From: Eledone cirrhosa
Taxonomy: Eukaryota
Length of the DNA stretch: 63,923 bases
Assembly (NCBI GenBank): GCA_964016885.1
Contig: OZ024744.1
Coordinates: forward strand, 31,930,001 to 31,993,923
Direction: 5' to 3'
Shown here: piece by piece, positions 2,124-56,793 of the stretch
How the letters are laid out: each line of letters starts with the position of its first letter
How positions within the stretch are numbered: position 1 is the stretch's first letter
The notes under the pieces: model-generated
The model's input: the letters and a program-made list of their open reading frames with translations, nothing else
What the model was told of the DNA's origin: nothing
The model's database searches: none
Made by a program: the position numbers and the translations under genes

Positions 2124-2785
2124 ATTATAAAACCTAATATTAGCAACATGTCTGAATTACACGAAGGCGACCGACTCGGTATGTAAAATCAATTAGTGGT
2201 CAGTTCTTCAGTCTAATGTCCCCAGGGAGATTTTCTATCATAAGCTGGAATGTGTGTAAATATGTAAAGATTCTGTTTGATATATCATAGGAAAGTATAT
2301 TCCCTGTGCAATGTTAAGTTATACTAAATTGATACATATAAAATCATATATACAAAAACTTACTTTGCTAGTCACTAGTTGATGGGCAACCAGAAAAAAA
2401 AACAAATTCCAAGTGCTTACAAACGTGTCCGAACACGGAATTACCGAACTCTCACTGTTATCGCCTCCATCTCTGTCACCCTCCCCATCTCTTTGTATTA
2501 TGAGGAAATGGGGCCCCACGTGCTGGCCGCCCCACAGCCCCGGTGGACAGTTTGGAGAAGGCGTTTCTCCGGAGAATGGCAAACCCATTCCAGCTCGCGA
2601 GGGTCACACCTGCGGCTGGCCAGCTTAGCGCCAATGGTGGTAAGTAGGAAGATAGCCCTAGGGCCAAGGACACCAGAAGTCTCCACTATAGTATACTCTA
2701 TGTATGTATGTATATATGTATGTATATATGTATGTATAGTATATTATAGTGTATATATATACACTATAATATACTATATATATAA

Positions 2786-3370
2786 ATATAAGTATGTACA
2801 CGTACATACATATATGTATACAGACGTACAGTAGTATGTATATATATATATACATACATGCACACATATATATATGTACGTATGGATTCACCGAACATTT
2901 ATTATAATGCTCGGTGTGTTTATAAACAAACATCCCTTATTAAGCCGTAGTGTCTAGCAACCATCGTTGCTCGTTTGTTCAACACTGACAAAGGAACGCT
3001 GTACTAGTTTCAAGCTTATTAGCTATCGTCAGCAACGTATACCTTCCTGCCATATTGTTGAACGTATATACTTACCTTATGCATATTAACGGCTGAGTAG
3101 ACCAATTTGCATATCGAGTGGGTTAATCGGCCCGGTGCACCGAAAATGATAAGCGGAAAAAATGAAACGAAATTTCATTTCCCACTCTTAGTACGGCTGT
3201 TACTTAAATATAAGTATGTACACGTACATGCATATATGTATATAGACGTACAGTAGTATGTGTATATATATACATACTACTATACGTCTGTATACATGTA
3301 TGTATGTACGTATACATATATGTATATACTAAGAGTGGGAAATGAAATTTGGTTTCATTTTTTCCGTTTA
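2786..3370 (-). mobile_element. Family B non-autonomous HHR element (~425-nt unit plus inverted end)
   Basis: Terminal direct repeat (agtatgtaca at 2791 and 3213), inverted piece 3270-3370, (TA)n flanks. Confidence 0.8.
2996..3038 (-). ncRNA. Type I hammerhead ribozyme, family B
   Basis: rc: acgttg CTGACGA t agc taataa gct t GAAA ctag TA cagcgt. Confidence 0.85.
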
Positions 3371-3402
3371 TATATATATATATAAATATATACAATCATA
3401 TA

Positions 3403-3444
<42 letters not shown>

Positions 3445-3591
3445 AAATAGGATTTCGCTTCAAGTATGGCTTTATACAATATGTATAAATATTTCGTATC
3501 TCCAAAGAAATACAGTTTTAGGAAGCCGTAGCTATGCAAACACCGGGGGGCTAACGCCCTCTGGTGATGCCCAGCAGAAGCAAGGGGGACA

Positions 3592-3635
3592 ACCGTCTAT
3601 GCATTTCAGGCTTAACTGGCCTTCGTCAGGACGGT
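3592..3635 (-). ncRNA. Type I hammerhead ribozyme, family A
   Basis: Exact reverse complement of 3802-3845. Confidence 0.9.
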
Positions 3636-3801
3636 CCCTCCCACGCTATGCTTGAAGCGAAATCTTATTTCTTTTTTATTATAAGTTGAGCCAACTTATG
3701 CAGCTTCATATGCAAATGAGATTAATCACCTCATTTACGCAGACGAGAAAAGTATATATTCTCAGCTGCCTTCTAGTCCAGCAGTCGCAAGCGATGGGGG
3801 G

Positions 3802-3845
3802 ACCGTCCTGACGAAGGCCAGTTAAGCCTGAAATGCATAGACGGT
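3802..3845 (+). ncRNA. Type I hammerhead ribozyme, family A
   Basis: accgtc CTGACGA aggc cagttaa gcct GAAA tgca TA gacggt: perfect 6-bp stem I, 4-bp stem II, palindromic stem III. Confidence 0.92.
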
Positions 3846-3984
3846 TGTCCTCCTTGCTTCTGCTGGACATCACTAGAGGGCGTTAGCCCCCCGGTGTTTG
3901 CATAGCTACGGCTTCCTAAAACTGTATTTCTTTGGAGTTACGAAATATTTATATATATATATATATATATATGTGTATGTATAT

Positions 3985-4492
3985 ATAAGTATGTATACGT
4001 ACATACATATATGTATACAGACGTACAGTATCATGTATATACATACATGCACACATATATATATGTACGTATGGGTTTACCGGACATTTATTATAATGTT
4101 CGGTTTGTTTGTAAACAAACAGCCCGAATTACGCCGTACAGTGTTCGGCAACCATGGTCGCCCTTTCGTTCAACACTGACACAGGAACGATGTACTAGTT
4201 TCAAACTTATTAGCTATCGTCAGCATCGTACGTCAGCCGATTGAACGTTTGAAAGTATATACTTTCCTTATGCATATTAACGGCTGAGCAGCCTAATTTG
4301 CATATCGAGTGAGTTAGTCGACCGGGTGTACCGAAAACGATAAATGGAAAAGCATGAAATGAAATTTCATTTCTCACCCTTAGTACGGCTGATACTTAAA
4401 TATAAGTATGTATACGTACATACATATATGTATACAGACGTACAGTAAGAGTGAGAAATGAAATGAAATTTCATTTCATTCTTTTCTTTTCC

Positions 4493-4495
<3 letters not shown>
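3985..4495 (-). mobile_element. Family B element with HHR at 4187-4229
   Basis: Terminal redundancy (agtatgtatacg at 3988 and 4405); rc acgatg CTGACGA...GAAA ctag TA catcgt. Confidence 0.8.
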
Positions 4496-4524
<29 letters not shown>

Positions 4525-4658
4525 GTTAAATAAGGTTCAATGAATAAATTAAAGAATTAGTTTTACAATAGATTGGAAGCACTCAACAGTATGGTTTTCC
4601 GGAGTTATTAATATTAATTCAAAATATTAACAAAAATAGAACTTCTTGTGATCAAGTA

Positions 4659-4725
4659 TATTTTATTATACATATTTCAGAGGTACTGAGCTAACTTCAA
4701 CAGTACGTCCTCATCAGATAAAATA
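4659..4725 (-). ncRNA. Type I hammerhead ribozyme in a pLTR related to family E
   Basis: rc: tattttat CTGATGA gg..gtactg..cagtac..GAAA tatgta TA ataaaata (8-bp stem I). Confidence 0.8.
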
Positions 4726-5311
4726 AGATGATGCATGACATACCCTGACATACTAGATGGTTAAGATCCAGTCATGGTAGTGAGTAAGATATGATAAAAC
4801 TCAATATTTATATACCTTAATATTGAGACATGAAAAAACTTACATATAATACATATAATACAGAGGGTGCGTGTAAGAAAGCTTAAAAATACATAACCGT
4901 AATTTACCTAACTGTTAGAGATTCAAATAATTATTGAAGAAAGAGGAAAGAATAAAGAAAGACAGAGAGAAAATAGATGAGGGGAAAATATAGCTAGTAG
5001 AGGTATAGAGAGCAAAAGAGAATTGACCAAGGAAAGAGAGAGAAAGAGGAATAAATTATAGGGAGGGATGAATTATATATATCTATACATAACTATACAT
5101 TTGCGCAATATATATATATATAAACAGTATACTATAGTTTCAGACATGTTCGATCGATTAAAAAGTCATGTCAATCTCACGTATGTATGTGTGTGTGTAT
5201 GTTCTGTATGCATGTGTGTGTGTAGATATGCGTGTATATATGCATATCTACACACACACACACCTCCACATTCATTCATACATACCTTAATATATATATA
5301 CATTTACACAC

Positions 5312-5364
<53 letters not shown>

Positions 5365-5369
<5 letters not shown>

Positions 5370-6130
5370 ACGCACATATATATATGTATACAGACGTATA
5401 CAGTAGTATGTATATATATACATACATGCACACATATATATATGTACGTATGGATTTACCGAACATTTATTATAATGCTCGGTGTGTTTGTAAACAAACA
5501 TCCCGAATTAAGCCGTAGTGTCTAGCAACCATCGTTGCTCATTTGTTCAACACTGACAAAGGAACGATGTACAAGTTTCAAGCTTATTAGCTATCGTCAG
5601 CATCGTATACCTTCCTGCCAGATGATTGAACGTCTGAAAGTATATACTTTCCTTATTCATATTAACGACTAAGCAGCCTAATTTGCATATCTAGTGAGTT
5701 AATCGGCCAGGCGTACCGAAAACGATAAACGGAACAAATGAAACGAATTTCATTTCTCACTCTTAGTACGGCTGTTACTTAAATATAAGTATGTACACGT
5801 ACATACATATATGTATACAGACGTACAGTAGTATGTATATATATATATATACAAACATATATCGTTCCTTTGTCAGTGTTGAACAAACGAGCAACGGTGG
5901 TTTCTAGACACTACGGCTTAATACGGGATGTTTGTTTGCAAAAACACCGAGCATTATAATAAATGTTCGGTGAATCCATACGTACATATGTGTGCATGTA
6001 TGTATATATATATATACATACTACTGTACGTCTGTATACATATATGTATGTACGTGTACATACTTATATTTAAGTAATAGCCGTACTAAGAATGGGAAAT
6101 GAAATTCGTTTCATTTTTTCCGTTTATATA
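5365..6130 (-). mobile_element. Family B element (HHR 5564-5606) plus inverted partial copy 5860-6130
   Basis: Period ~427 (cagacg at 5391 and 5818); core CTGACGA/GAAA/TA on the minus strand. Confidence 0.8.
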
Positions 6131-8388: not shown

Positions 8389-8412
8389 GACGTTCAACTG
8401 GCAGGAAGGTAT

Positions 8413-8455
8413 ACGTTGCTGACGATAGCTAACAAGCTTGAAACTAGTACAGCGT
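8413..8455 (+). ncRNA. Type I hammerhead ribozyme, family B
   Basis: acgttg CTGACGA t agc taacaa gct t GAAA ctag TA cagcgt. Confidence 0.85.
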
Positions 8456-8494
8456 TACTTTGTCAGTGTTGAACAAACGAGCAACGATGGTTTA

Positions 8495-12147: not shown

Positions 12148-12364
12148 CGATGGACACATGTGCTGAGCTCGCTCGGTAAGTTTTGTTTAAATTCATACGA
12201 AAATTGTAAACTGTAAACTTTCATTTTTGTACCATTTTGTAGAGGGACTGCCAGGTCAAACTTTGATCTGGTCGGTCTCTCAAAATATTCTGCGCCTTTG
12301 GGTGATATAGTATTGTAAACATTTTATCTTTCGAAAAACTTCGAAAAACCCTATTTTGAGAAAA

Positions 12365-14205
12365 ATGGCTGAAGCATCTTCACCATCAATCAAAGAAGGA
12401 AAGGGGAAGTCATACTCACAGCTTCCCCCTGCCACTGTCACAGCAGCAGATGCCAAAAGCAGAGGTCAGAGAGAGGAAGAATTGTCTTCACCTGTTGACC
12501 GACCACTAGATGTAGCCACAACTACACAAGAAATTGAAAACAACAACAACAACAACGACAACAACAGCAACAATAAAGACAACAAAAACAACAACAACAC
12601 AAACGTCACAAGTATCCACACACCAAACGAGAACGACAACAACAACAACAAAGATGAAAACAACTCAAACGACGAGAAACAAAACAATACAAACACCAAC
12701 AACGAAAACAAAATATCTTTTGCACAAACGACTAAATTATCAGTCGCTTATGTGCTGGAAGATATTTCAAAAGCCAAAGAAATGCTGGAAAAAGCCAAAA
12801 AATATGTATCTTTTGGCGAAAACGGTTCGTTTTCTATACATTCACCTCCAGAACTAAAAAAACAGACGGAATTACGAACTGTCGTATTCCGGACAATTTT
12901 AAATAAAACAAAAAAACCAGCACAACCATCTCAAGCTGAAATTCAGTTAGTACTGAAAGAAGCGATTAGAGACATCACTTTTATACAAAAGGATAAACTC
13001 TATGGGAGTTTATCCATATTGATGAAAGACGAATTGGCGGCGAAAAAATACTCTGTGTCGCCAATTCGTTCCACACACTACACCTTCTTCCCCACCTACA
13101 TGGGTAAAAAACCCCAGAGGATATGGATAACCACCATCACCCCAAACATAAACTAGTGGTGGTTACTAACCAGTTTCCTCAATTTAGACGAGGACAACCT
13201 CATTTCAATAGGGAAGGCATCCGGCGACGCGTTCAGTGGAACGCGCATCGAAGTTCTGACCCAAATAAGGCCAGAACGCATCGCCCAAATCCCTGAGCGC
13301 GTCATGCTGGATGACCGTACCCACCTCAACATTATTGTGGAGGGTAGGCCTCCCTCCTGTTACCTCTGTGGCAATAGAGGTCACCTGAGGGCTGCCTGTC
13401 CCCAGCTCACACAGAAAAAAACACTGCTACCAACACCAACACCACCCCAACTACAACAACAAAAACAACCACAACAACAACAACAACAACAAAAAACAAC
13501 AACCACACCACCACCACCACCACAACAACAACAACAAACACGTGAAAAAATAACACAGAATACTGTCCCACCCAATCCCTCCCCACCCAAAACAAATACA
13601 AAAACACACACACCGCAAACACTACCAGAAAACATACCCCTCCCACCCAACAAGGAAGACGAACCCCTTTCGTCGCAAGACGAAAAAGATCCCTTCCAAC
13701 AAGTAAAAAGAAAGAAGAGGAGACGCACCACAAACACACATGTTAACTTTAACCCCCCACCCAAGAGAACACAAACTACACACAAACCACCCCTCTCTGT
13801 CACACAACACTAACTGCTACACAAAAAAAAGACCTTACAATACACATACATGAACACAGACAACAAAGAATTACGGAAAACAATTTCAGCAAACCCTTCG
13901 GTCCAAACTGAAGGGCCAAACTTTATAACTGCTGTGGGACTACCTCATTTAAAAATGATAAAAGTCCCAATGAACTTGTACAAAACACTGAAAATAAATT
14001 TCACGGAGGACGTGGGCCCCCCCCCTGCGCCAAACCAATCAACCGCGTCCTCCTAAAAAATTCACCCCCCACCCCACCCAGACACCCACTCAACCACAAA
14101 CACACCGATGCCCCTTCACTTCCACAAACCACCACCCCACCCAACAACCCATCCCCAACCAGCATGGAAATTGAGCGGCCCGTTTCCCGGGACGCAGAAA
14201 GGTAA
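12365..14205 (+). pseudogene. Tx1 ORF1 (gag-like, zinc knuckle), interrupted by stops
   Basis: CYLCGNRGHLRAAC knuckle after IIVEGRPP; Asn/Gln/Pro low-complexity tracts; stops at ~13154, 13811, 14054. Confidence 0.75.
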
Positions 14206-14229
14206 GTGCCTTTTCTCCATACCACCAAC

Positions 14230-17200
14230 ATGGCTGTGCTAAGAGTAGGGTGTCTAAATGCGCGTGGCCTGGGTTCGTCTTGGAAGCAAGAAATGCTTCT
14301 AAATGACCTCAGGTCACAATCTATAAATGTGATGGTTATCTGCGAGGCCCGGATCAGCAGCATGCGACAGCTAGCCCCCACCATTGACGACTTTGAGATG
14401 CACGCATCTCTCTGACAGCTTGGAGGTGGGGTGGGGTTGTCGTTCTGCTGCAAAAACATATGGGCCTTGCAACACAGATAGTTCACTTGGACCCAGGGTG
14501 TCGACTGGTGGTGCTGGACCTTGGCAGTGGTGAAGGTGGAGCCTTTAGGCTGTAGCCGCATATGCCCCTTTTGGGACAGAGCGGCCCGACTTTTTCCAGC
14601 GTCTGGAGTCTTTTCTAGGGACGTCCCGTTCCCTGCTTTTAGTGGGGGATTGGAATGGTATCCTGGATGCACGTTGGGACTATGCAGGGGCATGTCCCGA
14701 CAGAGAGGGGTGCAACTGCCTCAAGGGGTTACTCGGCCGATTTGACCTGGCCGATAGATTTCGACTAGATTTTCCGACGGTGCCAACCTGGTCTTGGTCA
14801 AATCGCAGCGGATCATCTAGGTCGTACCTAGATAGATTTTTAGTTAGAAATAAGGACAGGGACTTTTTAAGTTGTCCAGAAATGCTCATGGTTGGCTATT
14901 CAGACCACAAGTTGGTGACCTGCATGGTCAACCTTGATAGAACGCATAGACAGGGCCCCGGTTACTGGAAGCTCAACTTGTCCTTGCCGGCAAGTAGAGC
15001 CTACAGGGATCGGATTAGTACGTTAGTTAAGGAACGATTGACTGGAGCGATCGTCAACAGCAGGTGGTGGGTATCTCTAAAGAGAGAGATTAGAGTAGTC
15101 TCGATAGAATTTAGTAAGGTTCTAGCTGCGGATAGGAATAGGAAGGAAAGGGAGCTAATAGATAGAGTAGAAGAGGCAATTAGAAGCGGCGACGTGGCCA
15201 GAGTGCTAGCGTCGAGAACGGCTTTGAGACAGTTTTTCGACGCGAAGCACGAAGGCTGCGTTGTCCGAAGTAAAATACGTGCTCTAGGGAACGAGGGGAC
15301 CAAAGCTGTTAGCTGGGCCCGCGTGACAGAGGCCAACGGTGGAACTAAATCCACTATCCGGTCTTTGCGAGACGTGGATGGACTGGCGATTCTTGAGCCT
15401 AGGCAGATGTGTGAGGCCTTTCAAAGGCACTTTGCCCGACTGTTCGGGAGGGGCGGGGAGCCGGTTGGGAACGTGGACTTCGGTCCATACCTCGACGGCC
15501 TGCCGCGTCTCTCGGACAGGGAGGCGAAGTCATGCGAGGAGCCGATTTCGGCCGCTGAGATAGAGATCGTGCTGGGCCAATGCGGCAAACGCAAATCCCC
15601 GGGTCTCGATGGTCTTCCTTACGAATTATATCTAGCTATGCCGGACTTGTTCCCCGATCTCCTCGAGGCGGTCTACTGCAACTGGCAACAGAACGGGAGA
15701 ATTCCCTGTACTGTGACCAAGGGCGTAGTCACGCTAGTGAGGAAGGACGAGAACAAGGGGGACGAAATAAGTAACTTCAGGCCCATAACTCTGCTAAATA
15801 CAGAGTTACAGATTTTGGCCAAGGTGCTAGCAAAGAGGTTGGCGCTTGTCGTGGGCAACCTGGTGGGAGATGCGCAGACATGCGCTATCCCGTCCAGGTC
15901 CATCCATGATAACCTCCACCTCATGCGATACATCATAGAGAGGGTTGGGAACGAACCCGGCTTTGGTGGGGCTCTGATCAACTTGGATCAATCTAAGGCG
16001 TTCGATAGGGTCGACCATGGTTACCTGGATGCGGTGCTAGCGGCGGCAGGCTTCTGACCCGTTTTCAGGGGCTGGATCACTGCTATGCACAGCAGCCACA
16101 TCTGCTCTAGGGTCAAGGTGAACGGCTACCTCTCGGAGCCGTTCAAAATCGCGCGGTCCATCCGACAAGGGTGCCCTCTCTCCTCCCTTCTGTATGTGTT
16201 GACTCTCGAGCCACTACTGCGGAAGTTGGAGTTGTTGCAGGGCATCCCTTTGGAACCGGGATTGCGAAAAGCGGTGTCGGCCAACGCCGATGACGTGACA
16301 GTAATGGTGTCGACGGCCTCCGAAATCGAGGCGGTCGGCACCTTACTGGAGGAGTACGAAAGGTTCACAGGGGCTAAGCTGAACCGGGACAAGTCGATCG
16401 GTTTGCAACTCGGCACGTGGAGGGGCAGACCGATGCCCTCCGATGGCGTCGTCGGACGCTGGACGGAGGGCCCGGTGAAGTTGCTCGGGGTCTGGTTCGG
16501 ACCGGACCTCCAGGTGGAGAAAAACTGGGCGGAGGTTACGAACAGGGTGTTTGCACTGACCCAAAAGTGGGCCAGTTGCAAACTATCGCTGAAAGGTTGA
16601 GCGGAGGTGGGGTGGCGAACACCTATATAGCGTCCGTCATCTACTACCGCCTGACCGTAGTGCCCTGCCCAAGGGAAACCCTCACCAAGATGGAGCGCGC
16701 ACTCTTCCAATTCCTTTGGAAGAGGCGGGCTCCTATGGTGAGGAGATCCATCTGCTGTCAACACCCTTCGAAAGGAGGGCTGGGGATGCCGTGGCTAATG
16801 ATGCGTAAACACGCATTAAGGCTACGGCACCTCTACGTATTCCTCACCGGTCAACCGGTGTGGGCCTCGTTTGTGAGACGAACCTTTCCCAGACTCGTCT
16901 CACTCACCGAGCTGCAATCCTGGGTCAAGCAAAGACCGAGAAAACTGGGCGCTTGGCACACTGAGTGTGCCCAGGCGCTCACCGCCCTCTGGCAGGCGGA
17001 TCCGGTTATCAGTGGAGACTCCACCGCAACATTCTATAGAGGGCTGGTACGCAGCCCTCGGAGAAGCCCTAGACATGGAGGAGGACGAACTGGCCAGCCT
17101 GTTCGGTAGGACATTCGGCCCAGGACCTATGGACAACTTCCAGAAGTCCCTGGCCTGGCAGTGCTACCGAGGGGCTCTACCCGTTCGAGAAAAGCTCTAC

Positions 17201-17400
17201 AGACACGGGCGCCCGGGTAGGGACCCCGCCAAAAAGATCTGTCCTAGATGCGTGTGCGACGAGGAAACCGTTGCACACGCATTGGTACACTGCTCGGGCG
17301 TAGCCGATCTGTGGGGCTATGTCGAACAACTGCTGTCAAGGGTGGGACCGATCCGGTTGACCACCGAGTCTATTGTAATGATTAACCACCTCCCCCCTTC
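14230..17400 (+). pseudogene. Tx1 ORF2: APE endonuclease, reverse transcriptase, C-terminal CCHC; frameshifted
   Basis: CLNARGL, GDWN, YLDRFL, SDH, KSPGLDGL, NFRPITLLN, LDQSKAFDRVDH, RQGCPLS, NADD, GGLGMP, CPRC..ETVAHALVHC. Confidence 0.92.
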
Positions 17401-17404
17401 AAAG

Positions 17405-19170
17405 ATGAACAACACATCAGAGACGGTGGATTAATTAGAAATGTACCAACACATGAGAGACAGTGGATTAATAAGAAATTTAACCAACACATCAGAGACG
17501 GTGGATTAATTAGAAATGTACCAACACATGAGAGACAGTGGATTAATTAGAAATTTACCAACACATGATGGACGGTGGATTAATTAGAAATTTACCAACA
17601 CCTGAGAGACGGTGGATTGATTAGAAATTTACCAACACATGAGAGACAGACGGTGGATTAATTAGAAATTTACCAACACCTGAGAGACGGTGGATTAATT
17701 AGAAATGTACCAACACATGAGAGACGGTGGATTAATTAGAAATTTACCAACACATGAGAGACAGACGATGGATTAATTAGAAATTTAACCAACACATGAG
17801 AGACGGTGGATTAATTAGAAATTTAACCAACACCTGAGAGACGGTGGATTAATTAGAAAGTTACCAACACATGAGAGACAGACGGTGGATTAATTAGAAA
17901 TTTAACCAACACCTGAGAGACGGTGGATTAATTAGAAATGTACCAACACATGAGAGACGGTGGATTGATTAGAAATTTAACCAACACCTGATGGACGGCG
18001 GATTAATTAGAAATTTAACCAATACATGATGGAGGGCGGATTAATTAGAAACTTAACCAACACCTGAGAGACGGCGGATTAATTAGAAATTTAACCAGAT
18101 ACCAACACCTGATGGAGGGCGGATTAATTAGAAATTTAATCAGGTAGCAACACCTGATGGAGGGCGGATTAATTAGAAATTTAACCAAGTACCAACACCT
18201 GATGGAGGGCGGATTAATTAGAAATTTAAGCAGGTAGCAACACCTGATGGAGGGCGGATTAATTAGAAATTTAAGCAGGTAGCAACACCTGATGGAGGGC
18301 GGATTAATTAGAAATTTAACCAGATCCCAACACCTGATGGGGGGCGGATTAATTATAAATTTAACCAGGTAGCAACACCTGATGGAGGGCGGATTAATTA
18401 TAAATTTAAGCAGGTAGCAACACCTGATGGAGGGCGGATTAATTAGAAATTTAAGCAGGTAGCAACACCTGATGGAGGGCGGATTAATTAGAAATTTAAC
18501 CAAGTACCAACACCTGATGGAGGGCGGATTAATTAGAAATTTAACCAAGTACCAACACCTGATGGAGGGCGGATTAATTAGAAATTTAACCAAGTACCAA
18601 CACCTGATGGAGGGCGGATTAATTAGAAATTTAACCAAGTACCAACACCTGATGGAGGGCGGATTAATTAGAAATTTAACCAAGTACCAACACCTGATGG
18701 AGGGCGGATTAATTAGAAATTTAACCAAGTACCAACACCTGATGGAGGGCGGATTAATTAGAAATTTAACCAAGTACCAACACCTGATGGAGGGCGGATT
18801 AATTAGAAATTTAACCAAGTACCAACACCTGATGGAGGGCGGATTAATTAGAAATTTAAGCAGGTAGCAACACCTGATGGAGGGCCGATTAATTAGAAAT
18901 TTAACCAGATACCAACACCTGATGGAGGGCGGATTAATTAGAAATTTAAGCAGGTAGCAACACCTGATGGAAGACGGATTAATTAGAAATTTAACCAGAT
19001 ACCAACACCTGATGGAAGGCGGATTAATTAGAAATTTAAGCAGGTAGCAACACCTGATCGAGGGCGGATTAATTAGAAATTTAACCAGGTAGCAACACCT
19101 GATGGAGGGCGGATTAATTAGAAATTTAACCAGGTAGCAACACCTGATGGAGGGCGGATTAATTAGAAAT
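17405..19170. repeat. Minisatellite: 37-42-bp units grading into 45-bp units
   Basis: Unit accaacacctgatggagggcggattaattagaaatttaaccaagt; about 8 identical units near 18480-18840. Confidence 0.95.
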
Positions 19171-19363
19171 TCACTATGATTTGTTATTCATTTAAAATAT
19201 TTTTGTTTGTTGTTAGTTTCTTTTTTTTTCTGTTTTCTTTTTATATATTAACATTCAGAGTTTTGCTGACACAGGACGAGCCTACATGGACGTAAACATA
19301 TATATGGGGGGTCACCTTTTTGAAAGGGTACGTCAATATCTATTTGTAAACTGTTATATATTG

Positions 19364-19555: not shown

Positions 19556-19596
<41 letters not shown>

Positions 19597-19598
<2 letters not shown>

Positions 19599-19959
19599 CC
19601 GTTCATCGTTTTCGGTGCGCCCGGCAGATTAACTCACTCGATATGCAAATTAGGCTGCTCAGCCGTTAATATGCATAAGGAAAGTATATACTTTCAGACG
19701 TTCAATCATCTGACAGAAAGGTATACGATGCTGACGATAGCTAATAAGCTTGAAACTAGTACATCGTTCCTGTGTCAGTGTTGAACAAAAAGGGCGATGA
19801 TGGTTGCCGAGCACTGTACAGCATAATTCGGGCTGTTCGTTTACAAACAAACCGAACATTATAATAAATTTTCGGTAAACCCATACGTACATGTATATAT
19901 GTGTGCATGTATACATACTACTGTGCGTCTGTACACATATATGTATGTACATATACATA

Positions 19960-19962
<3 letters not shown>
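19597..19962 (+). mobile_element. Family B element with HHR at 19725-19767
   Basis: acgatg CTGACGA t agc taataa gct t GAAA ctag TA catcgt; (TA)n on both sides. Confidence 0.85.
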
Positions 19963-20011
<49 letters not shown>

Positions 20012-20896: not shown

Positions 20897-21065
20897 TATA
20901 TAGTTATAGAGGTATTTATTTACGCTTTAATTTATATTTTTAATTATCGTGTCTATAGTCTGCCTTTCATAGGATATAGATTCCATACACTGGTGGTTTT
21001 TCCCTGTTTTATTGATAGCGCACTGTATCTCTCCCCAGTGTCTTACCTTTTCAAGATATTGTATT

Positions 21066-21128
<63 letters not shown>

Positions 21129-21129
21129 G

Positions 21130-21605
21130 AAAGAAATAGGATTTCGCTTCAAGCATAGCTTTATACAATATATATAAATATTTTGTATCTCCAAAGAAAT
21201 ACAGTTTTAGGAAGCCGTAGCTATGCAAACCGCAAGGGGCTTACGCCCTCTGGTGATGTCCAGCAGAAGCAAGGGGGACAACCGTCTATGCATTTCAGGC
21301 TTAACTGGCCTTCGTCAGGACGGTCCCGCCCACCGCTTGTGACTGCTGGACTAGAAGACAGGCGAGAATATATACTTGGGGCGTTAGCCCCCCGGTGTTT
21401 GAATAGCTACGGTTTCCTAAAACCATATTTCTTTGGAGATACGAAATATTTATACATATTGTATAAAGCTATGCTTGAAGCGAAATCCTATTTCTTTTTT
21501 ATTATAAGTTGAGCCAACTTATGCAGCTTCATATGCAAATGAGATTAATCACCTCATTCACACAGACGAGAAAAGTATATATTCTCGCCCGTCTTCTAGT
21601 CTAGC
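21130..21605. mobile_element. Family A element, inverted pair; HHR at 21281-21324 (-)
   Basis: Homologous to 3441-3953; HHR identical to 3592-3635. Confidence 0.85.
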
Positions 21606-21667
21606 AATCTAAAGACATTTTTTCCAATTCCATCCCGCCCGTCCCTTTAATCTATCTAATTTCTCAT

Positions 21668-23494: not shown

Positions 23495-23529
<35 letters not shown>

Positions 23530-23537
<8 letters not shown>

Positions 23538-24120
23538 AAAAATGAAGCGAAATTTCATTTCTCACTCTTAGTACGGCTGTTACTTAAATATAAGTATGTA
23601 TACGTACATACATATATGTATACAGACGTACAGTAGTATGTATATATGTATATATATATATACATACATGAACACATATATATATATATGTACGTATGTA
23701 TTCACCGAACATTTATTATAATGCTCGGTGTGTTTTTAAACAAACATCCCGAATTAAGCCGTAGTGTCTAGCAACCATCGTTGCTCATTTGTTCAACACT
23801 GACAAAGGAACGCTGTACTAGTTTCAAGCTTATTAGCTATCGTCAGCAACGTATACCTTCCTGCCAGATGACTGAACGTCTGAAAGTATATACATTCCTT
23901 ATGCATATCAACGGCTGAGCAGCCTAATTTGAATATCGAACGAGTTAATCGGCCGGGCGTACCGAATACGATAAACGGAAAAAAATGAAACGAAATTTCA
24001 TTTCCCACTCTTAGTACGGCTGTTACTTAAATATAAGTATGTACCCCTACATACAGAGTGAGAAATAAAATCTCGTTTCATTTTTTCCGTTTATCGTTTT
24101 CGGTACCCCGGCCGATGAAC
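23530..24120 (-). mobile_element. Family B element (HHR 23810-23852), ~1.2 units plus inverted end
   Basis: ctcttagtacggctgttacttaaatataag repeated at ~23565 and ~24008; inverted piece 24055-24120. Confidence 0.85.
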
Positions 24121-31052: not shown

Positions 31053-32045
31053 CTATCCGTTAGGGTATAACGTGGGGCTGTAATACAGGAAAGTTTTGTG
31101 CAATTCATGTTTACAAGCCGAAATTGCCTCAGATTTTTTGTTTAAGATGTGGTCTGTGGCGTAGAGTATTTCCAGGGCCTCAGCGGCGCAGAGGTCACAT
31201 GGTCTTTTATTTCCGTTATACGATCTAGCCCTAGCTAGGATCTCCCAGTGTAACTTATATTGGGTGTGGTTGTCTTTTAGACTCCAGATATAAGCTGAAA
31301 GTGACGTCATATTCCTTCTTAGAGGGTAACGAAAAGAATGGGTATGCATGTAAAGACGCTGCTTGAAACTATTGGTGGTTAACCCTATGTAGGCCCTACG
31401 GGACGTGGGTGTTACAACCTTACATTTGTAGACAATGTTACTAGAGAGGCATTTCCCGGATAGGGGGCAATCAGCCCGATTCCTACAATTACAGTTAGTA
31501 CTAACTACAGGGTTGCATGTGTTCCTACGGCTAGGTAGTTTAGCTAAATTTGAAGCTGTGATGTTATGTGCAAGGTTAGGAGTCGTAGAGTAAGACATTT
31601 TAATAGTATTTCTATTAAAAATTTTACTATATTTATGTGTAGGGGGAAAATGCTTCGTAATAAGGGAAAGAAAGATCTTAGCTAATGGTGTGGCCACCTC
31701 CATATTATATGGTGGGTTAAACCAACAAATGCGACGGGATCCATTTCTTCTAGGTCTATTTTCATACTCTGTATATGCTACCTTATCGACAAATCCACTT
31801 CGAGCAAGAGCTTCATTGTAATAAGTGGAATGGTCGTTGAAAATGCGCTCGTTGGTGGAAAGACGGGAAAGTCTCAACGAAACGTTTCTTACCAGGTTCT
31901 TGGTTATGCTGGCAGGATGGTTGGAATGCTTACTTATGTAATTAAGCGTATCATTCGGCTTTCTATATGGGTAATACAACCCATTCAATAAATTGAGGGT
32001 AACGTCGAGGTAATTAACGACCGAGAGATTGGCCTCAACCTGCAT
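31053..32045 (-). CDS. PLE RT thumb, linker and GIY-YIG endonuclease (5' truncated)
   Basis: VNYLDVTL, YRKPN..YI..SNHP, WFNPPY, CNCRNRADCPL, IVY..YIGLT..FKQR..H, CDLCAAE, CKH. Confidence 0.9.
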   Translation of the reverse strand: MQVEANLSVVNYLDVTLNLLNGLYYPYRKPNDTLNYISKHSNHPASITKNLVRNVSLRLSRLSTNERIFNDHSTYYNEALARSGFVDKVAYTEYENRPRRNGSRRICWFNPPYNMEVATPLAKIFLSLITKHFPPTHKYSKIFNRNTIKMSYSTTPNLAHNITASNLAKLPSRRNTCNPVVSTNCNCRNRADCPLSGKCLSSNIVYKCKVVTPTSRRAYIGLTTNSFKQRLYMHTHSFRYPLRRNMTSLSAYIWSLKDNHTQYKLHWEILARARSYNGNKRPCDLCAAEALEILYATDHILNKKSEAISACKHELHKTFLYYSPTLYPNG

Positions 32046-32100
32046 AGAGAGGTTGAAGCCTTTAAAGAAGGCTGTGAGTTCTTTTCTGAACCTGTCGCAA

Positions 32101-32887
32101 GATAAACAATGGACTATGCCACGTGGCTTGAACCTGTAAGTGAATTGAAGGTTCTGTAACTCTGATACACAGATTATTTATTATTAAGATGTATAAACTT
32201 GACATAACTATTATCATCTTATATTCTCTCAACTAATCACATTTGATCATATTTCTCTATCCCGTTTTCTCCCCCCATAATTATAATATTTTTTATTTTT
32301 ATTTGAAAAAATCGGTTTTTTTACATTATATTCTCTATATATTTTTTTACATATATATTTTTTATCTTTATTATTTCCACTTTTATCCTCCTTTATATAT
32401 TTCCTTACTCTTACTTTTATACCTTATTATAGTGTAATCTTCCCCATGCCTTACTATACACTATTAATTATAGATTATTATTATTACTCTTCTTCCATTT
32501 CTAATTACCTCATGTACTTTCTCCTCCGTTATATATATATATATTGTATGCCCTTCGTGTTTGTGTAGCCTCTGCACACCCTCTGCACCATACTATCGAC
32601 GCCACCCCATCTATGGTTCAGCTAACCACTCGACTCCCGGGAATGAATATGACCGCAGCTAGTAAACAAGGACCCACACCCCACCCTCCCGCACCAAAAT
32701 TAGACTTATCGTCCCCTACTTTTGTTCTTTACTCTCTTTACTCTTTGTTCTTGAATGTTTGGTTGGTAGAGTCCATAACACCAATCAAACCCCTTTTATA
32801 GCTCTGACGAATCCTACGGTTACGTAAGGAAGAAACATTGTAAGCCAATAAAAATCTTTTGATGTTGTAGACGCTCTTGTGTTCTTT

Positions 32888-33298: not shown

Positions 33299-33617
33299 AC
33301 ACATGTATGTATATATATGTATAACAAAGGAATTGTGGTAAGGAACCAGATGGACCATAACGCACCAGAGTACTCAATAATTAGGGTAGTAGAGTGGGAA
33401 ATAGGAAAAAGTATGACCCCGATGGCAGAGCTCAAGCCGTTCCGACGGCTCTTTCTGGACTAAATTAGAATTTTTAGCCTGGTGAATAAATAGCCGAACT
33501 TTTCAAGGGGGACTTCCTTATATGGGAAGATTGTAGTTGTCAAGAGGATTGCACTTTCCGACTCTAACACGCCATATCCCGACTTTTCCACCCAGCTCAA
33601 GTTTCTTCACCCGCACG

Positions 33618-35725
33618 ATGCGAAAACACAACATCGACTTCTCCACCAAGAACATCCCAGTTCCACCGAGAAAACTTTACCTTCGGATGCTCACGCAAAA
33701 AATCGACCTTTTTGCGAAAAGACGAAGATGGAGAACTTTTTTCTGCGATAGAGGCCGCGACAATCAGGACTTCGACACCAAGGGGAGATTCGGATTCAAT
33801 ACCTACAAATCTCTCCCTCCAAACCCTATGCTCTCACCCTTCGAGAACGACCTATTCCACCTGGTCAAGAGCATTAAATTCAAACCCAGACAACAGATTC
33901 CTACAACAACTCCGTAGCAAAATAACAGAGTATGAAAACACCAACGACATCATGGTGCACTCGGACAAAACAGGAAATCTCTACTTCATCAACCCTGACA
34001 GATACCACACACTGATCAGGAGCAGCCTAAACTCCACCTATAAAAAGTCTAACCATTCAATTATCGAGGAAATAAATCGAGATGGACAACAAATTACTTC
34101 CAGCCTCGGGGTCGCCGACCGCACTGAACTCCTAGACCCACGGACTACCTACTTCACACTGAAGGACCACAAATCCGACTTCGACCGCAAACCATCCATT
34201 AGGCTTATAAACCCAACGAAGTCGGACATAGGGAGAATCAGTAAAAAGATCCTAGACCGAGTTATATCAAAAGTTAAGCAAAACGTGAGACTTAGCCTAT
34301 GGGTCAGCACCCAGGAAGTAATCTCATGATTTAGGAATATGAAGGACAAACGAGACACAACATTCATCCAGTTTGACATAGAGAGTTACTATGCATCTAT
34401 TACCTTACCGCTCCTTACGGCCGCCTTGGTCTTTGCCGAAACACTCACACCCATCACTGAGCAGGAAAGAAATATCATTCTACACGCCAGGAAGACAGTC
34501 CTACTTTTCGACAACTCTAAGTGGATAAAGAGAGCTCCCGACTCCCCCTTCGACGTCAGTATGGGCGCGACGGATTCGGCCAAGGTCACAGATCTTATAG
34601 GATTATTCCTACTATTTAAACTCACCGAAATATTTCCTACATTCGGCGGTGGATTGTACCGGGATGATGGGCTCCACACCCTCAAAGGGTACAACCCCAG
34701 TAGTACAGACCGGGTCCGTAAACAACTAATCAACTTCTTCCGGGACTAGGGATTTAAAATCAGCCTACAAACGTCCCTAACACGAGTCAATTTCCTGGAC
34801 GTTACCGTTAACCTCGAAACTGATCTGTACTACACATACAGGAAACCAAACGACAACCTGCACTACATCCACCGCCGCTCTAGCCATCCTAGAAACATCA
34901 CCAATAACCTGGTTAAAAACAACTCCCTCCGCATATCTCGTTTGTCCGCTAATGAGCAGATATTCGACGAACACGCGCCTCATTACAACCAGGCCCTCAA
35001 GCGGAGTGGCTTCCGGGAGGAAATATCCTTTTATCCAGCTTCCCTTAGTGATACCGCCGCTCACGCAACGCAGCGTGGTTCAATCCTCCCCATAATGCCG
35101 AGGTGGCAACACCTATCGGGAAAATCTTCTTTAGAGACCTCGAAAAACACTTCCCACTACAACACCGTTACCACAACATAATCAACAAAAACACCATCAA
35201 CCTCGCCTATAGCACCACACCTATCTTCGCACAAAACATCGTCTCCTCAAACAACAAAAAACTCAACCCCTATGGAAGAAATAACCTAGACATCAGTGGA
35301 GAGCCGACCAGGAGGTGTAACTCCCCTGATAGATCTACGTGCCCCCTCAACAACAAATGCCGAGAACGTAACGTGATCTACCAGTGCAACGTGAGGACGG
35401 ACACCCCCAACAAAGCTTATATAGGAATAACCGCGTGTGACTTCAAGACCCGGCTTTACCAACACCGACATACTTTCTGAAACCCGCCCCGGCGACATGC
35501 CACTACACTTTCGGGCCACATCTGGGACCTCCAAGATAATAATATAACCTACAATCTCATATGGAGCTTACTCTCCAGAGTTAACTCTTAACAGGAGGAC
35601 GCCGTCCGTTTAACTTATGCTCGGAGGAAACATTACAAATGCTGTTTTCGAAGGACCAACTCCTAAACAAGAAATACGAACTGGTAACCGCATACAAACA
35701 CTTACCTCGCCCTCAAACCCCATAA
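33618..35725 (+). pseudogene. PLE reverse transcriptase and GIY-YIG endonuclease, with stops and frameshifts
   Basis: FSTKNIPVP, SDKTGN, LKDHK, RLINPTKSDIG, QFDIESYYASI, MGATDSAKV, GLYRDDGL, FLD, CN.PDRSTCPL, IYQC..YIG. Confidence 0.92.
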
Positions 35726-47481: not shown

Positions 47482-49354
47482 ATACATGTAATATATACTT
47501 ACCTATACAAATAAGTAATGGTATAAACATAATATATACGTAGCTACCACATCAAGGCGTAAAATATCCGCGTATAGTTCGTACTATCTGTTAGGGTATA
47601 ATGTTGGGCTGTAATACAGGAAAGTTCTGTGCAATTTATGTTTACAAGCCGAAATTGCCTCAGATTTTTTGTTTAAGATGTGGTCTTTGGCATAGAGTAT
47701 TTTCATAGAGTATTTTCAGGTCACATGGTCTTTTATTTCCGTTATACGATCTAGTCCAAGCTAGGATTTCCCAATGTAACTTATATTGAGTGTGGTTGTC
47801 TTTTAGACTCCAGATATAAGCTGAAAGTGACGTCATATTCCTTCTTAAAGGGTACCGAAAATAATGGGAATGCATGTAAAGACGCTGCTTGAATCTATTG
47901 GCGGTTAACCCTATGTAGGCCCTACGGAACGTGGGTGTTTCAATCTTACAATTGTAGACAATGTTACTAGAGAGGCATTTCCCGGATAGGGGCAGTCAAC
48001 CCGATTCCTACAATTACAGTTAGTACTAACTACAGGGTTGCACGTCTTCCTACGGCTAGGTAGTTTAGCTAAATTTGAAGCTGTGATGTTATGTGCAAGG
48101 TTAGGAGTCGTAGAGTATGAAATTTTAATAGTATTTCTATTAAAAATTTTACTATATTTATGTGTAGGGGGAAAATGCTTCATAATAAGGGAGAGAAAGA
48201 TTTTAGCTAATGGTGTAGCCACCTCCATATTATATGGTGCATTATACCATATAATGCGTCGGGATCTATTTCTTCTAGGTCTATTCTCGTACTCTGTATA
48301 TGCTTCCTTATCGACAAATCCACTCCGAGCAAGAGCTTCATTGTAATAAGTCGAATGGTCGTTGAAAATATGCTCGTTAGTAGATAGACGGGAAAGCCTC
48401 AAATAAACGTTTCTTACCAGGTTCATGGTTATGCTGGCAGGATGATTAGAATGCTTACTTATGTAATTAAGCGTATCATTCGGCTTTCTATACGGGTAAT
48501 GCAAGCCATTCGATAAATTGAGGGTAACGTCGAGGTAATTAACGACCGAGAGGTTGGCCTCAACCTGTATGGAGAGGTTGAAGCCTTAAAAGAAGGCTCT
48601 GAGTTCTTTTCTGAACCTGTCGCAAGCACGTGGGCCGGACTTAATCATGGTCAAAAGACCATCATCACGGTACAAACCACCGCTCACGTTGAGAAATTCT
48701 TCCTTGATAGAGAAAAGAAGGAAAAAGCCGATAAGATCAGTAACCTCCGCAGAATCGCTGGCGCCAATACTCACGTCGAATGAGGTACTATTAGATTATT
48801 TTAATCCAAATAGAGTCGTCGAAATTAATCACCGACTTACGGGAATTGAGGATGACATCAACTTCGAAATCCTTAGCGTCTGTGAGTGTTTTAGCGAAAT
48901 TGATAGCTCTAAGGAGAAGTGGTAATGTGATGGAGGAGTAGTAATTATTGATGTCGAATTGGATAAAACGGCAATGTTCCTTGTTGCATATGTCGTTGAA
49001 CCAATTAATCACCGCGAAAGAATTGTTCCACAGTGCAAGAGGGGCCAAACTTCTAATTTCAGGTATAATTCTTTCAAGAATCCTTTTACTAAGTCTACCT
49101 AAATAGGACTTCGAAGGGTTAATAAGCCGAATAGACGGGTTGTTCGGAAAATTGGATTTGTGATCCTTCAGGGTAAAGTGGGGAGAGATAGGGTCCAGAG
49201 GTTCAGTCCAGTCCAGGATGTTGAGATCAGAAGTGATTTTAAACCCAGCATCGTTGAGTTCATTAATGACGCTCCGATTAATTTTACGGTAATATATATA
49301 GTTATTAAAGGAAACAAAACAAAGACAGGGATGCAAAAATACAGTTATATTATG

Positions 49355-49450
<96 letters not shown>

Positions 49451-49459
49451 TGTATGTAT

Positions 49460-50710: not shown

Positions 50711-51186
50711 ATAAATGGAAAAGAATGAAACGAAATTTCATTTCTCACTCTTAGTACGGCTGATACCTAAATATAAGTATGTATACGTACATACATATAG
50801 TACAGACATACAGTAGTATGTATATATACATACATTCACACATATATATATGTACGTATGGGTTTACCGAACATTTATTATAATGTTCGGTTTGTTTGTA
50901 AACAAACAGCCCGAATTACGCCGTACAGTGCTCGGCAACCATCGTCGCCCTTTTTGTTCAACACTGGCACAGGAACGGTGTACTATTTTCAAGGTTATTA
51001 GCTATCGTCAGCATCGTATACCTTCCTGTCAGTCGATTGAACGTTTGAAAGTATATACTTTCCTTATGCATATTAACGGCTGAGCAGCCTAATTTACATA
51101 TCGAGTGAGTTAGTCGGCCGGGCGTACCGAAAACGATAAATGGAAAAGAATGAAACGTTAATATGCATAAGGAAAGTATATACTTT
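50711..51186 (-). mobile_element. Family B element (degenerate HHR at 50975-51017)
   Basis: ataaatggaaaagaatgaaacg at 50711 and 51136 (period 425); inverted end 51157-51186. Confidence 0.85.
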
Positions 51187-52923: not shown

Positions 52924-52997
<74 letters not shown>

Positions 52998-53389
52998 ATT
53001 AAATAAATGGAAAACTATATTTATAAAACCATATTTATTTCATTATATATATTTTTTGGGGATATCATATTAACAATATGCTATGCCTTCATCAGACAAA
53101 ATACAATATAAACAGTTTTATAGATAAATATATTCGACATACCGTAATAAACATCAACTTCATTTGAAGAGGTTTACTCTAGCAGTGAAAATACAGAGAG
53201 AAAGAAAGAGAGAGAGAAAAGAGGGAAATAAGAAAGAAAGAAAGACAAAACGAAGAAAAGGAAGAAAAAGAAGAAAAAGAAAAAGAAGAAATGCATGGGA
53301 CAAAATAGAGAGATGGAAAAATAGATAAAGCGAAGAGCTTCATGTAAAGAGACAGAAAGAGAAATTTTGAGATTGACCTGCCAGTTAGA

Positions 53390-55021
53390 TTGATCGCACC
53401 TTCAAAATCGGACCTGGGCAAATTAAGCAAAAACATTCTTGACAGGGTGATACTGCAAATTAAGAACTTGGATTGTGTATCTAACCTGAGCTTGTGGAAG
53501 GGAACTGGAGAGGTTGTTGAGTGGTTTAGGCAAATTAAATATGACAATAATAATAGGTTTATTCAACTTGATATAGCTAACTATTATTCTTCTATTACCC
53601 CTAGTCTACTAAATAAGGCACTAAATTACGCATTCAAACATACGGACCTAACTAGCAAAGAAATGCATATTATATTATCGGCTAGGAAAACTTTGATAGA
53701 ATTTGATGACAAATTATGGACCAGAGCAGATAGAGATAGCAATTTTGACATAACTATGGGATCTTCCGACTCAGCTCAGGTAACTGACCTTGTGGGCTTA
53801 TTTTTAATCAATTCGCTACATAGGAAAATACCTGGTACTACCGGAGGTTTATATAGGGATGACATGCTTTTACTTATTAATAATAATAACCCTGAACTAA
53901 ATAGAAAATGTAAACAAATTACAACATTTTTTAATTACTTTAACCTTAAAATAGAAATTGAGAACAACCATAGAATAGTCAATTTCCTAGATATAACATT
54001 AAATCTCAACACATGTCTCCACTATCCTTTTCACAAGTTGAATGAAAACTTAAACTATGTCAACTTTAACTCTAACCACCCCAGATCTGTCAAAAACACT
54101 ATAGTAAACTCAGTCCAAAAACGTATCTCTAGGATCTCGTCGAATAGAAAGATTTTTGAAGAAAAGGCCCAATACTATAATGATGCACTAGCTAGGGCAG
54201 GGTATGCTGATAAGATTGTGTACATAGATAATGATAAACAAACTAAACAAAGTAACAACTTTTTTAATTACGGAAACAACATTAACAACTATAATAGAAA
54301 GCATTACAATAATTCCAAAGGACAAAAAAGAAATAGAACTAGGAACATAATTTGGTTTCCCCCCCCCCCCCCCCCTTTTTCACTAAACATTAAAACCCAC
54401 ATCGCTAAATTATTTTTCAAAGCTCTTGATAATCGCTTCCCTAGAACACATAGGTACCACTCAATCTTCAATAGGCATACAATTAAATTAACCTACTCAT
54501 CCACCAAAAATTTAGCACAAAATATTAATAGAATAAATAATAGGAACTTAAAACCTACTGATAATAGCATAAATAATATACAAGTTAACAAATGTAACTG
54601 TAGAGATAGATCTAAATGTCCGTTAAATAACAACTGCTTAGTTAAAAATATAGTATACAATTGTAATGTTAATACTGACTCTAATTCTTTTATCTACGTC
54701 GGTTCCACATCGACGGAATTTAAACTTCGCTATAATAACCACAAGAATTCTTTCACAGATCCAAATAAAAAATCTTCAACGGCACTATCAGGGGTACTCT
54801 GGCAACTTAAGCTAGATAACGTTAGATATTCGACGGCTTGGAATATAGTTTCAAGAGGGATTCCTTTTAATTCATCCTCTGAGACATGTGACCTCTGCGC
54901 AGAGGAGATATTCTTTATACTAAAATCTAAAAATTCCCTTAACCTACGGACAAATTTATTCAGTTGTTGCAAACATAGATTAAACTCAACGTTTAAATAT
55001 AAATTTAAATTTAAAATGTAG
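53390..55021 (+). CDS. PLE reverse transcriptase and GIY-YIG endonuclease, open frame, N-terminus truncated
   Basis: PSKSDLGKLSK, QLDIANYYSSI, MGSSDSAQV, GLYRDD, FLDITL, SNHP, CNCRDRSKCPL, IVY..YVG..FKLRYNNH, CDLCAEE, CKH. Confidence 0.93.
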   Translation: MIAPSKSDLGKLSKNILDRVILQIKNLDCVSNLSLWKGTGEVVEWFRQIKYDNNNRFIQLDIANYYSSITPSLLNKALNYAFKHTDLTSKEMHIILSARKTLIEFDDKLWTRADRDSNFDITMGSSDSAQVTDLVGLFLINSLHRKIPGTTGGLYRDDMLLLINNNNPELNRKCKQITTFFNYFNLKIEIENNHRIVNFLDITLNLNTCLHYPFHKLNENLNYVNFNSNHPRSVKNTIVNSVQKRISRISSNRKIFEEKAQYYNDALARAGYADKIVYIDNDKQTKQSNNFFNYGNNINNYNRKHYNNSKGQKRNRTRNIIWFPPPPPPFSLNIKTHIAKLFFKALDNRFPRTHRYHSIFNRHTIKLTYSSTKNLAQNINRINNRNLKPTDNSINNIQVNKCNCRDRSKCPLNNNCLVKNIVYNCNVNTDSNSFIYVGSTSTEFKLRYNNHKNSFTDPNKKSSTALSGVLWQLKLDNVRYSTAWNIVSRGIPFNSSSETCDLCAEEIFFILKSKNSLNLRTNLFSCCKHRLNSTFKYKFKFKM

Positions 55022-56232: not shown

Positions 56233-56597
56233 ATGCATCATTGATACACTTACTCAAAATGACCTCCCACTACCTAATTTTTCTATATTTCTATATGTAT
56301 CTATCTCTATTTCCTCTCTCTCTCTATATATATATATATCTCTTTCTGTCTCTTTACATGAAGCTCTTCGCTTTATCTATTTTTCCATCTCTCTATTTTG
56401 TCCCATGCATTTCTTCTTTTTCTTTTTCTTCTTTTTCTTCCTTTTCTTCGTTTTGTCTTTCTTTCTTTCTTATTTCCCTCTTTTCTCTCTCTCTTTCTTT
56501 CTCTCTGTATTTTCACTGCTAGAGTAAACCTCTTCAAATGAAGTTGATGTTTATTACGGTATGTCGAATATATTTATCTATAAAACTGTTTATATTG

Positions 56598-56665
56598 TAT
56601 TTTGTCTGATGAAGGCATAGCATATTGTTAATATGATATCCCCGAAAAATATATATAATGAAATA
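56598..56665 (+). ncRNA. Type I hammerhead ribozyme, family E (slightly degenerate)
   Basis: tattttgt CTGATGA..catatt gtt aatatg..GAAA aa tatata TA atgaaata. Confidence 0.6.
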
Positions 56666-56793
56666 AATATGGTTTTATAAATATAGTTTTCCATTTATTT
56701 AATATTGTAAATATACTCCAAATATTTGTCGAGTGCTTTTATATCAGTTATAAATATTTACTAGTTGTAACCCAACAATTTTAAATATAACTT

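Follow-up and report, generated by a model that had tools for sequence, protein, structure and literature searches.

Family B, a 422-nt unit without an open reading frame (ORF) that carries one type I hammerhead (HHR), is by its sequence an animal non-LTR retrozyme, and we consider it likely that a Penelope-like element (PLE) copies it in trans by priming on both target strands, one at each of two internal sites. The window, by which we mean the whole 63,923-nt stretch of DNA analysed (C28:31,930,001-31,993,923), lies in a 3.0-Gb genome and is rich in (TA)n and retroelements. A first-pass annotation of the window had proposed a retrozyme, and the HHR, the short tandem low-GC unit, the multimers and the lack of an ORF are all present.

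Family B in the window and the genome

Seven copies had been claimed in the window, five of them longer than one unit, with a period of about 417-443 nt and units running head-to-tail without coding sequence, and this description held up. All seven are present at 89-98% identity to a natural 422-nt unit, and five exceed one unit (1.24, 1.12, 1.17, 1.20 and 1.05 units, the 1.24 being inflated by a TA-rich flank). The period measured in three copies is 422, 417 and 443 nt, and ATG ORFs in the tandem unit reach 51 aa at most. By self-comparison and a motif search, each copy has one HHR core, on the minus strand in five of the seven (3032, 4223, 5600, 23846 and 51011) and on the plus strand at 8419 and 19731. 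Most window copies also have a head-to-head inverted arm (3327-3371, 5863-6127, 24056-24120, and two short arms seen by eye). Unit positions below refer to a circular reference, the natural 422-nt unit of locus L003 read from one predicted cut to the next, on which the sites S1 (unit 218) and S2 (unit 275) lie 218 and 275 nt beyond the predicted cut in RNA sense. The features are as follows.

2783..3313, minus: main arm of copy 1, ~1.2 units, RNA-sense 3′ end at S1 (unit 218/219), into TA-rich target
2996..3038, minus: type I HHR of copy 1, with putative cleavage predicted after the GUA at 3002
2788..2884 (approximate), minus: long TA-rich hairpin of copy 1 (unit ~118-214), a predicted fold that stops just before S1
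3149..3205, minus: 56-nt 'tail' between S1 and S2, within the tandem continuation of copy 1
3327..3371, plus: inverted arm of copy 1, ends at S2 (unit 275), then (TA)n
3980..4447, minus: copy 2, A-U subfamily, 1.12 units, ends at S1; HHR core 4223, predicted cut after 4193
~4448-4490: short inverted S2 arm of copy 2, by eye
5353..5849, minus: main arm of copy 3, 1.17 units, S1 end in (TA)n; core 5600, predicted cut after 5570
5863..6127, plus: inverted arm of copy 3, unit 4-275, ends at S2
8390..8492, plus: copy 4, 0.25-unit fragment across the HHR (core 8419), 3′ end at neither site
19596..19969, plus: copy 5, 0.89 unit, S1 end, inside (TA)n; HHR core 19731
23529..24055, minus: copy 6, 1.20 units, S2 end in (TA)n; HHR core 23846
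24056-24120: inverted arm of copy 6, ends at unit 302 (neither site)
50711..51157, minus: copy 7, 1.05 units, S2 end; core 51011, three point changes in stems (II, III, I)
~51158-51186: short inverted arm of copy 7, by eye

The architecture is tandem and not LTR-like. Unit length is 413-430 nt in 156 natural units (found with a search window of 410-430), with a GC content of 37%. Extrapolation from 5 dispersed insertions in 39 fixed-position 10-kb stretches, one further stretch lying inside a 111-kb array, gives ~38,000 dispersed insertions genome-wide (95% range 12,000-90,000). Three subfamilies (B1-B3) can be told apart, differing at 9% and 19% of columns when the TA hairpin is left out. Units of the third are longer, and their range of 447-583 nt is probably due to (TA)n growth inside the hairpin, as seen in one aligned unit. 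This subfamily (L267-L296) is young, its members being 98% alike.

Hammerhead and RNA structure

The HHR combines an extended stem I (ACGUUG/CAGCGU), the core CUGACGA...GAAA, a GUA cut triplet, a 4-bp stem II (AGCU-AAUA-AGCU) above a U.U mismatch and a weak stem III of 1-2 bp with the palindromic ACUAGU; self-cleavage is predicted at GUA^C. Cores are intact in 162 of 196 spanned HHRs, and 97% of HHR stem cells are paired across 68 natural copies. The stem I covariation noticed in the first pass is real (U.G in 31, A-U in 27 and G.U in 6 of 68 rows); it is the sole doubly changed pair in the HHR among these copies, a count that shuffles equal in 500 of 500. Between subfamilies, the whole unit has 3 pair-keeping double changes in one comparison (null 0.22, P 4e-4) and 4 in the other (null 0.92, P 0.007), the second also showing 13 predicted pairs broken (null 16.9) against 8 kept. 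Since the structure was predicted from the first subfamily, this covariation is supportive and not conclusive. None of the 11 core letters is changed across the three subfamilies and, together with the compensatory pairs, this supports the earlier suggestion that the unit is under selection on RNA structure, as far as alignments and predicted folds can speak to it.

The unit as a whole is strongly structured (fold z −7.7 vs shuffles), the isolated HHR folds no better than its own shuffles (z −0.36), and in the predicted circular fold all 10 tested pairs of HHR stems I and II form. No HHR family is among the Rfam matches listed (150 of 183), which are all repeat-driven miRNA matches below gathering scores.

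Insertions end at two fixed sites

Insertion ends were mapped for 211 arms in 119 loci drawn from the window, the top matches of four queries and the random stretches, so that most loci are top similarity matches and not a random sample. Before mapping, the set was cleared of six loci lying in arrays, three that are segmental duplicates, five that overlap either the window or another locus, and short matches of low identity to the TA-rich part. RNA-sense 3′ ends fall at S1 or S2 in 168 of 206 uncut arms, where 11% would be expected, with 72 ends exactly at unit 275 and 53 exactly at unit 219. Pure TA of 8 nt or more follows 96 of 130 exact ends (40/54 and 56/76 at the two sites), and S1 and S2 each match the target by 2-3 nt. 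The first-pass annotation had described copies starting at different phases and had proposed mapping both endpoints round a circle. Differing phases are indeed seen for the RNA-sense 5′ ends, discussed below; the 3′ ends lie instead at two fixed phases.

Among the 211 arms there are 69 head-to-head pairs: 43 with both ends at a site, 23 in which one or both ends lie elsewhere and 3 truncated by the edge of the locus. One arm ends at S1 and the other at S2 in 38 of the 43 classifiable pairs. The third subfamily behaves in the same way, with 34 of 44 ends at the two sites and 10 of 10 classifiable pairs mixed, giving 48 one-of-each pairs out of 53 combined (P 7e-10); in the random-stretch loci both classifiable pairs are mixed. 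A coding PLE family of the same genome, H1, follows this pattern too, as 77 of its 83 uncut 3′ ends lie at two sites beyond its own HHR and its divergent pairs are mixed in 10 of 10 examined by eye.

In vitro, a PLE RT initiates at two internal positions, which lie downstream of the HHR and bound a 'tail' (PMC11167929). Judged by sequence, the two-site ends of family B are this PLE 'tail', and because they match the in vitro start sites, mobilisation by a PLE in trans is well supported. The mobilisation suggested by the first-pass annotation is supported, more directly than had been argued there, by fixed two-site ends, inverted arms, (TA)n targets and the same pattern in a coding PLE.

Template form, multimers and arrays

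RNA-sense 5′ ends are flat round the unit (0.5-1.6x in 20-nt bins), with a hazard of ~1 per 270 nt. At the cut site, 11 of 225 arrivals stop and the remaining arms run through. An early hint of a 5′-end pile-up there was dropped, as the hazard test was non-significant (9 ends vs 5.6 expected, P 0.12) and 2 of the 9 events were alignment artefacts. Ends that are flat and pass through the cut site point to a template without a fixed 5′ end; this excludes a cut linear monomer as the main template, and the ends show no fixed start of transcription. A circular or multimeric template, as first proposed, is supported in this either/or form, a ligated circle or an uncut multimer, and the 5′ ends do not separate the two.

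The first-pass remark that no copy has two same-strand HHRs is true for the window, to which it was confined; elsewhere in the genome the dimers and multimers it had said to look for do occur, including large arrays. At least two HHRs on the same strand are found in 38 of the 211 arms, all outside the window, with dimers to 4-mers seen. The largest array spans 111 kb (G000 C28:109,956,628-110,067,798), with ~260 units interrupted once; each of its ends is an S1 junction leading into (TA)n, and intact cores make up 205 of the 244 counted. C1, C4 and C28 carry further arrays, and array sizes run from 25 to 111 kb. We also observed in the 111-kb array (L252-L256, L053, L074-L079) a higher-order repeat of ~12 units in L075/L077, the interruption lying near 109.979-109.983 Mb.

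Arrays of 25 to 111 kb, and inverted-repeat ends that are superficially MITE-like, invite the explanation that family B is satellite DNA spread at the DNA level by eccDNA, unequal exchange or MITE-like transposition, with the HHR as a passenger. Long head-to-tail arrays are found for part of the family only, however, and the array ends are themselves S1 or S2 junctions. The strand-polar architecture with fixed 3′ and random 5′ ends, a two-site reciprocity common to a coding PLE and the RNA-level covariation also speak against this explanation, which we regard as extremely unlikely.

Lineage-informative sites bear on the template as well. The two arms of one pair are discordant at 13% of lineage alleles, vs 28% between loci; 19 of 25 pairs differ at 0-1 lineage sites, and 2 of 25 have clearly different haplotypes. 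Units within one insertion disagree at 6.5% of lineage sites, a value inflated by the choice of these sites as variable, vs a background of 3.1% (P 3e-4). This disagreement and the two-haplotype pairs argue that not every insertion came from one monomeric circle. The identity of units within an insertion was also tried as a test of circle against multimer and did not discriminate. Overall, the lineage data, as read from genomic copies, are compatible with a circle or with a multimer, some templates being mixed.

An alternative to which we give slightly less than even weight keeps the same family and the same PLE mobilisation, and would have the PLE copy a linear, uncut multimer, a transcript of arrays or of small multimers, with the HHR weak or protein-assisted and circles playing no part in the spread. 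The flat 5′ ends fit it equally, array-adjacent units (differing at 2.5-10% of lineage sites) are as concordant as units within an arm (6.5%), and the tandem units of L119 differ at 5 sites. In a PLE assay uncut RNA was the dominant template and HHR mutants were still inserted (PMC11167929), and among frog dimers 1 of 9 was cleaved (Li et al. 2026 preprint, 10.64898/2026.07.22.740005). Against an uncut multimer, the units agree to within 1.4% in 9 of 64 multi-unit arms, closer than the 3-9% divergence of array neighbours, and in L018 private alleles are common to ~2.7 units and the inverted arm, although such homogeneity could also come from later duplication or a homogeneous donor. The core, moreover, is kept across subfamilies, which implies that cleavage matters at some step.

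Our preferred reading, trans-copying of a retrozyme by a PLE, would run as follows. Multimeric copies would be transcribed, and the HHR would cut the transcripts to monomers, probably as a dimer because stem III is weak and palindromic. On whether the monomers are then ligated to circles, or uncut multimers serve as the template, we are evenly divided. A PLE RT/GIY-YIG protein would nick both (TA)n strands, and S1 would be primed by one 3′ end and S2 by the other, perhaps aided by 2-3 nt of TA/TAT microhomology. The RNA, or its donor lineage, would usually be the same for both. The RT would pass the cut site and fall off at random, about once per 270 nt, and the two cDNAs would be joined at their 5′ ends to give head-to-head pairs. 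Terminally redundant insertions could later grow into satellite arrays. We tentatively go one step further, to a possibility we find rather doubtful: the PLE enzyme may act as an asymmetric dimer on one endless ligated RNA circle, priming each strand at a different fixed site and copying by rolling circle. If this were true, retrozyme circles would be direct PLE substrates and the seeds of 100-kb ribozyme satellites.

Relation to coding PLEs

H1 has as its nearest atlas clusters RT/HTH_animal/GIY-YIG, and for the window PLE protein the nearest atlas clusters with recorded taxa are most often molluscan. The PLE ORFs gave no recognition by Pfam, NCBIfam or PDB except a sub-threshold GIY-YIG match. 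By eye, PLE-like ORFs or remnants with YRDD and GIY-YIG-like motifs, without a Pfam match, lie in the window at 53348-55021, 31053-32177, 33537-35480 and 47660-49459. On both sides of the first of these lies an inverted repeat (52986-53365 / 56336-56715), which has a long-stem HHR-like core at 56606; similar cores are at 4717, 19372, 33033 and 38582.

The copies might instead be 5′-truncated pLTR ends that belong to an autonomous PLE, its copies with an ORF having gone unnoticed. Their end architecture is identical to that of PLEs, and with only top matches sampled a rare parent could hide. One duplicated C4 locus (L184/L188) does fuse an H1 ORF (569-571 aa open frame) and 3′ UTR to a B unit on the same strand, the L188 chimera having an S1 end in (TA)n. 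This chimera may have arisen by a template switch or by insertion with deletion and, being open to either origin, leaves H1 a candidate partner only. Elsewhere, what lies upstream of a unit is the unit again, up to ~260 times. Copies extending 5′ into a PLE ORF had been named beforehand as evidence against a retrozyme, and apart from the single duplicated chimera none of 181 arms runs 5′ into PLE sequence in register. Nor is there a recurrent 5′ junction among 107 flanks, save self-matches, one local duplicate and one unrelated TA-targeting repeat. Outside the chimeric cluster, H1 leads into a pLTR region of its own at each of 25 loci, one of them truncated in the UTR, and neither H1 nor the PLEs of the window showed a pLTR resembling B. 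For the sampled copies the pLTR explanation is thus largely refuted, and we think it very unlikely.

H1 was also considered as the parent of family B and set aside, having its own pLTR and a long-stem HHR. L129, at first taken for a B/PLE chimeric pair, is a B insertion inside an H1-like ORF with PLE sequence on both flanks, and in L028, L140 and L143 the supposedly linked neighbours are separated by unrelated or microsatellite sequence. L110 and L153 have a repeat in common in their 5′ flanks; among 20 loci with this repeat, the query's own is the only one where it continues into B. Other PLE neighbours of B share a common microsatellite target or are themselves insertion targets. In comparisons with 11 PLE-end or HHR-family regions, the similarity of B is at shuffle level for 9, and for the other two it narrowly exceeds the highest shuffle score: family A (36 vs 30) and a PLE 3′ region (37 vs 34). 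In L244, L248 and L262 (C4:351.94-352.29 Mb), a chimera of PLE ORF and 3′ UTR with B occurs four times at ~28-kb spacing plus once inverted, and full-length H1 elements adjoin B arrays at C4:375.78 Mb (L258, L266).

Other repeats in the window and genome

A second HHR family lies at 3441-3973 and 21064-21609 of the window (cores 3629 and 21318 on the minus strand and 3808 on the plus strand). By eye it has a palindromic stem III, head-to-head arms and two different ends beside (TA)n, and may represent a further retrozyme bearing this footprint. More HHR-like cores, belonging to several families, were noted at 9035/9887, 39833/42816/43383, 10306/38021, 28223, 28414/28430 and 32804; loose core matches in the window number 29, some by chance. 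An abundant repeat (L297-L316) stops at a fixed point before (TA)n, with 2 of 20 loci showing a form that continues; mostly without an HHR core nearby, it is possibly an HHR-less PLE. The window also holds a LINE-like element at 12311-17434, with an endonuclease/RT ORF (Pfam RVT_1 match), followed by 37/45-nt minisatellites at 17410-19171.

Comparison with known systems

Animal non-LTR retrozymes (PMC7229834; 10.64898/2026.07.22.740005) are like family B in their short, low-GC, ORF-less tandem unit with a type I HHR, in occurring as monomers, dimers and large arrays, in a highly self-paired predicted circle and in co-occurrence with PLEs. Two features of B, the U.U below helix II and a helix III that is weak and palindromic, recall axolotl motifs described there. 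As far as the same texts go, mobilisation of retrozymes by PLEs is a hypothesis drawn from co-occurrence and pLTR homology, and B differs from the non-LTR retrozymes they describe in having insertions with a PLE tail, inverted arms and (TA)n targeting. The main text of PMC7229834 makes no mention of a tail or of inverted or truncated ends; in the main text of the 2026 preprint the tail is absent and 'inverted' occurs only in a reference title. TE matches exist for 24 of 57 Xenopus families, unlike B, for which no homologous pLTR parent was found, and for B expression, cleavage and circles are predictions from genomic sequence.

The pLTR and tail of PLEs (Poseidon_Ac, PMC11167929; PMC8557442; PMC3846280) share with B two fixed 3′ ends past the HHR cut, a head-to-head 5′-truncated arm and a target that is AT-rich or (TA)n. 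Such inverted arms have been described in PLEs, and the tail is often at one end only. Unlike these elements, B has no ORF, its tail is 56 nt as opposed to 30-40 nt, and its sequence beyond the tail loops back to the HHR. The start sites of B match the target by 2-3 nt, whereas those of PAc are reported as non-homologous, and the one-site-per-arm reciprocity counted in B contrasts with the lack of a strand difference in start site in vitro (PMC11167929). The non-autonomous PLE derivatives of Chlamys, e.g., MRC1, are similar to B in being non-coding, PLE-type, multicopy head-to-tail insertions; at the 3′ end they are similar to their autonomous partner, and a canonical HHR is missing from most Chlamys elements, whereas B has one (PMC8557442).

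A literature search for octopus or cephalopod retrozymes, or for such an end pattern, gave only the Naiad paper or nothing, supplements, subscription papers and repeat databases being largely outside its scope, and within the literature searched the two-site insertion footprint was not found in print for a retrozyme. Family B is ordinary in kind and unusually informative about mechanism. It supplies a retrozyme insertion footprint and two candidate RT start sites that can be tested in the existing in vitro PLE assay. Furthermore, the near-strict one-site-per-arm rule in both a retrozyme and a coding PLE constrains the second-strand step of PLEs, and the PLE junctions at array ends connect retrotransposition with the origin of satellite DNA.
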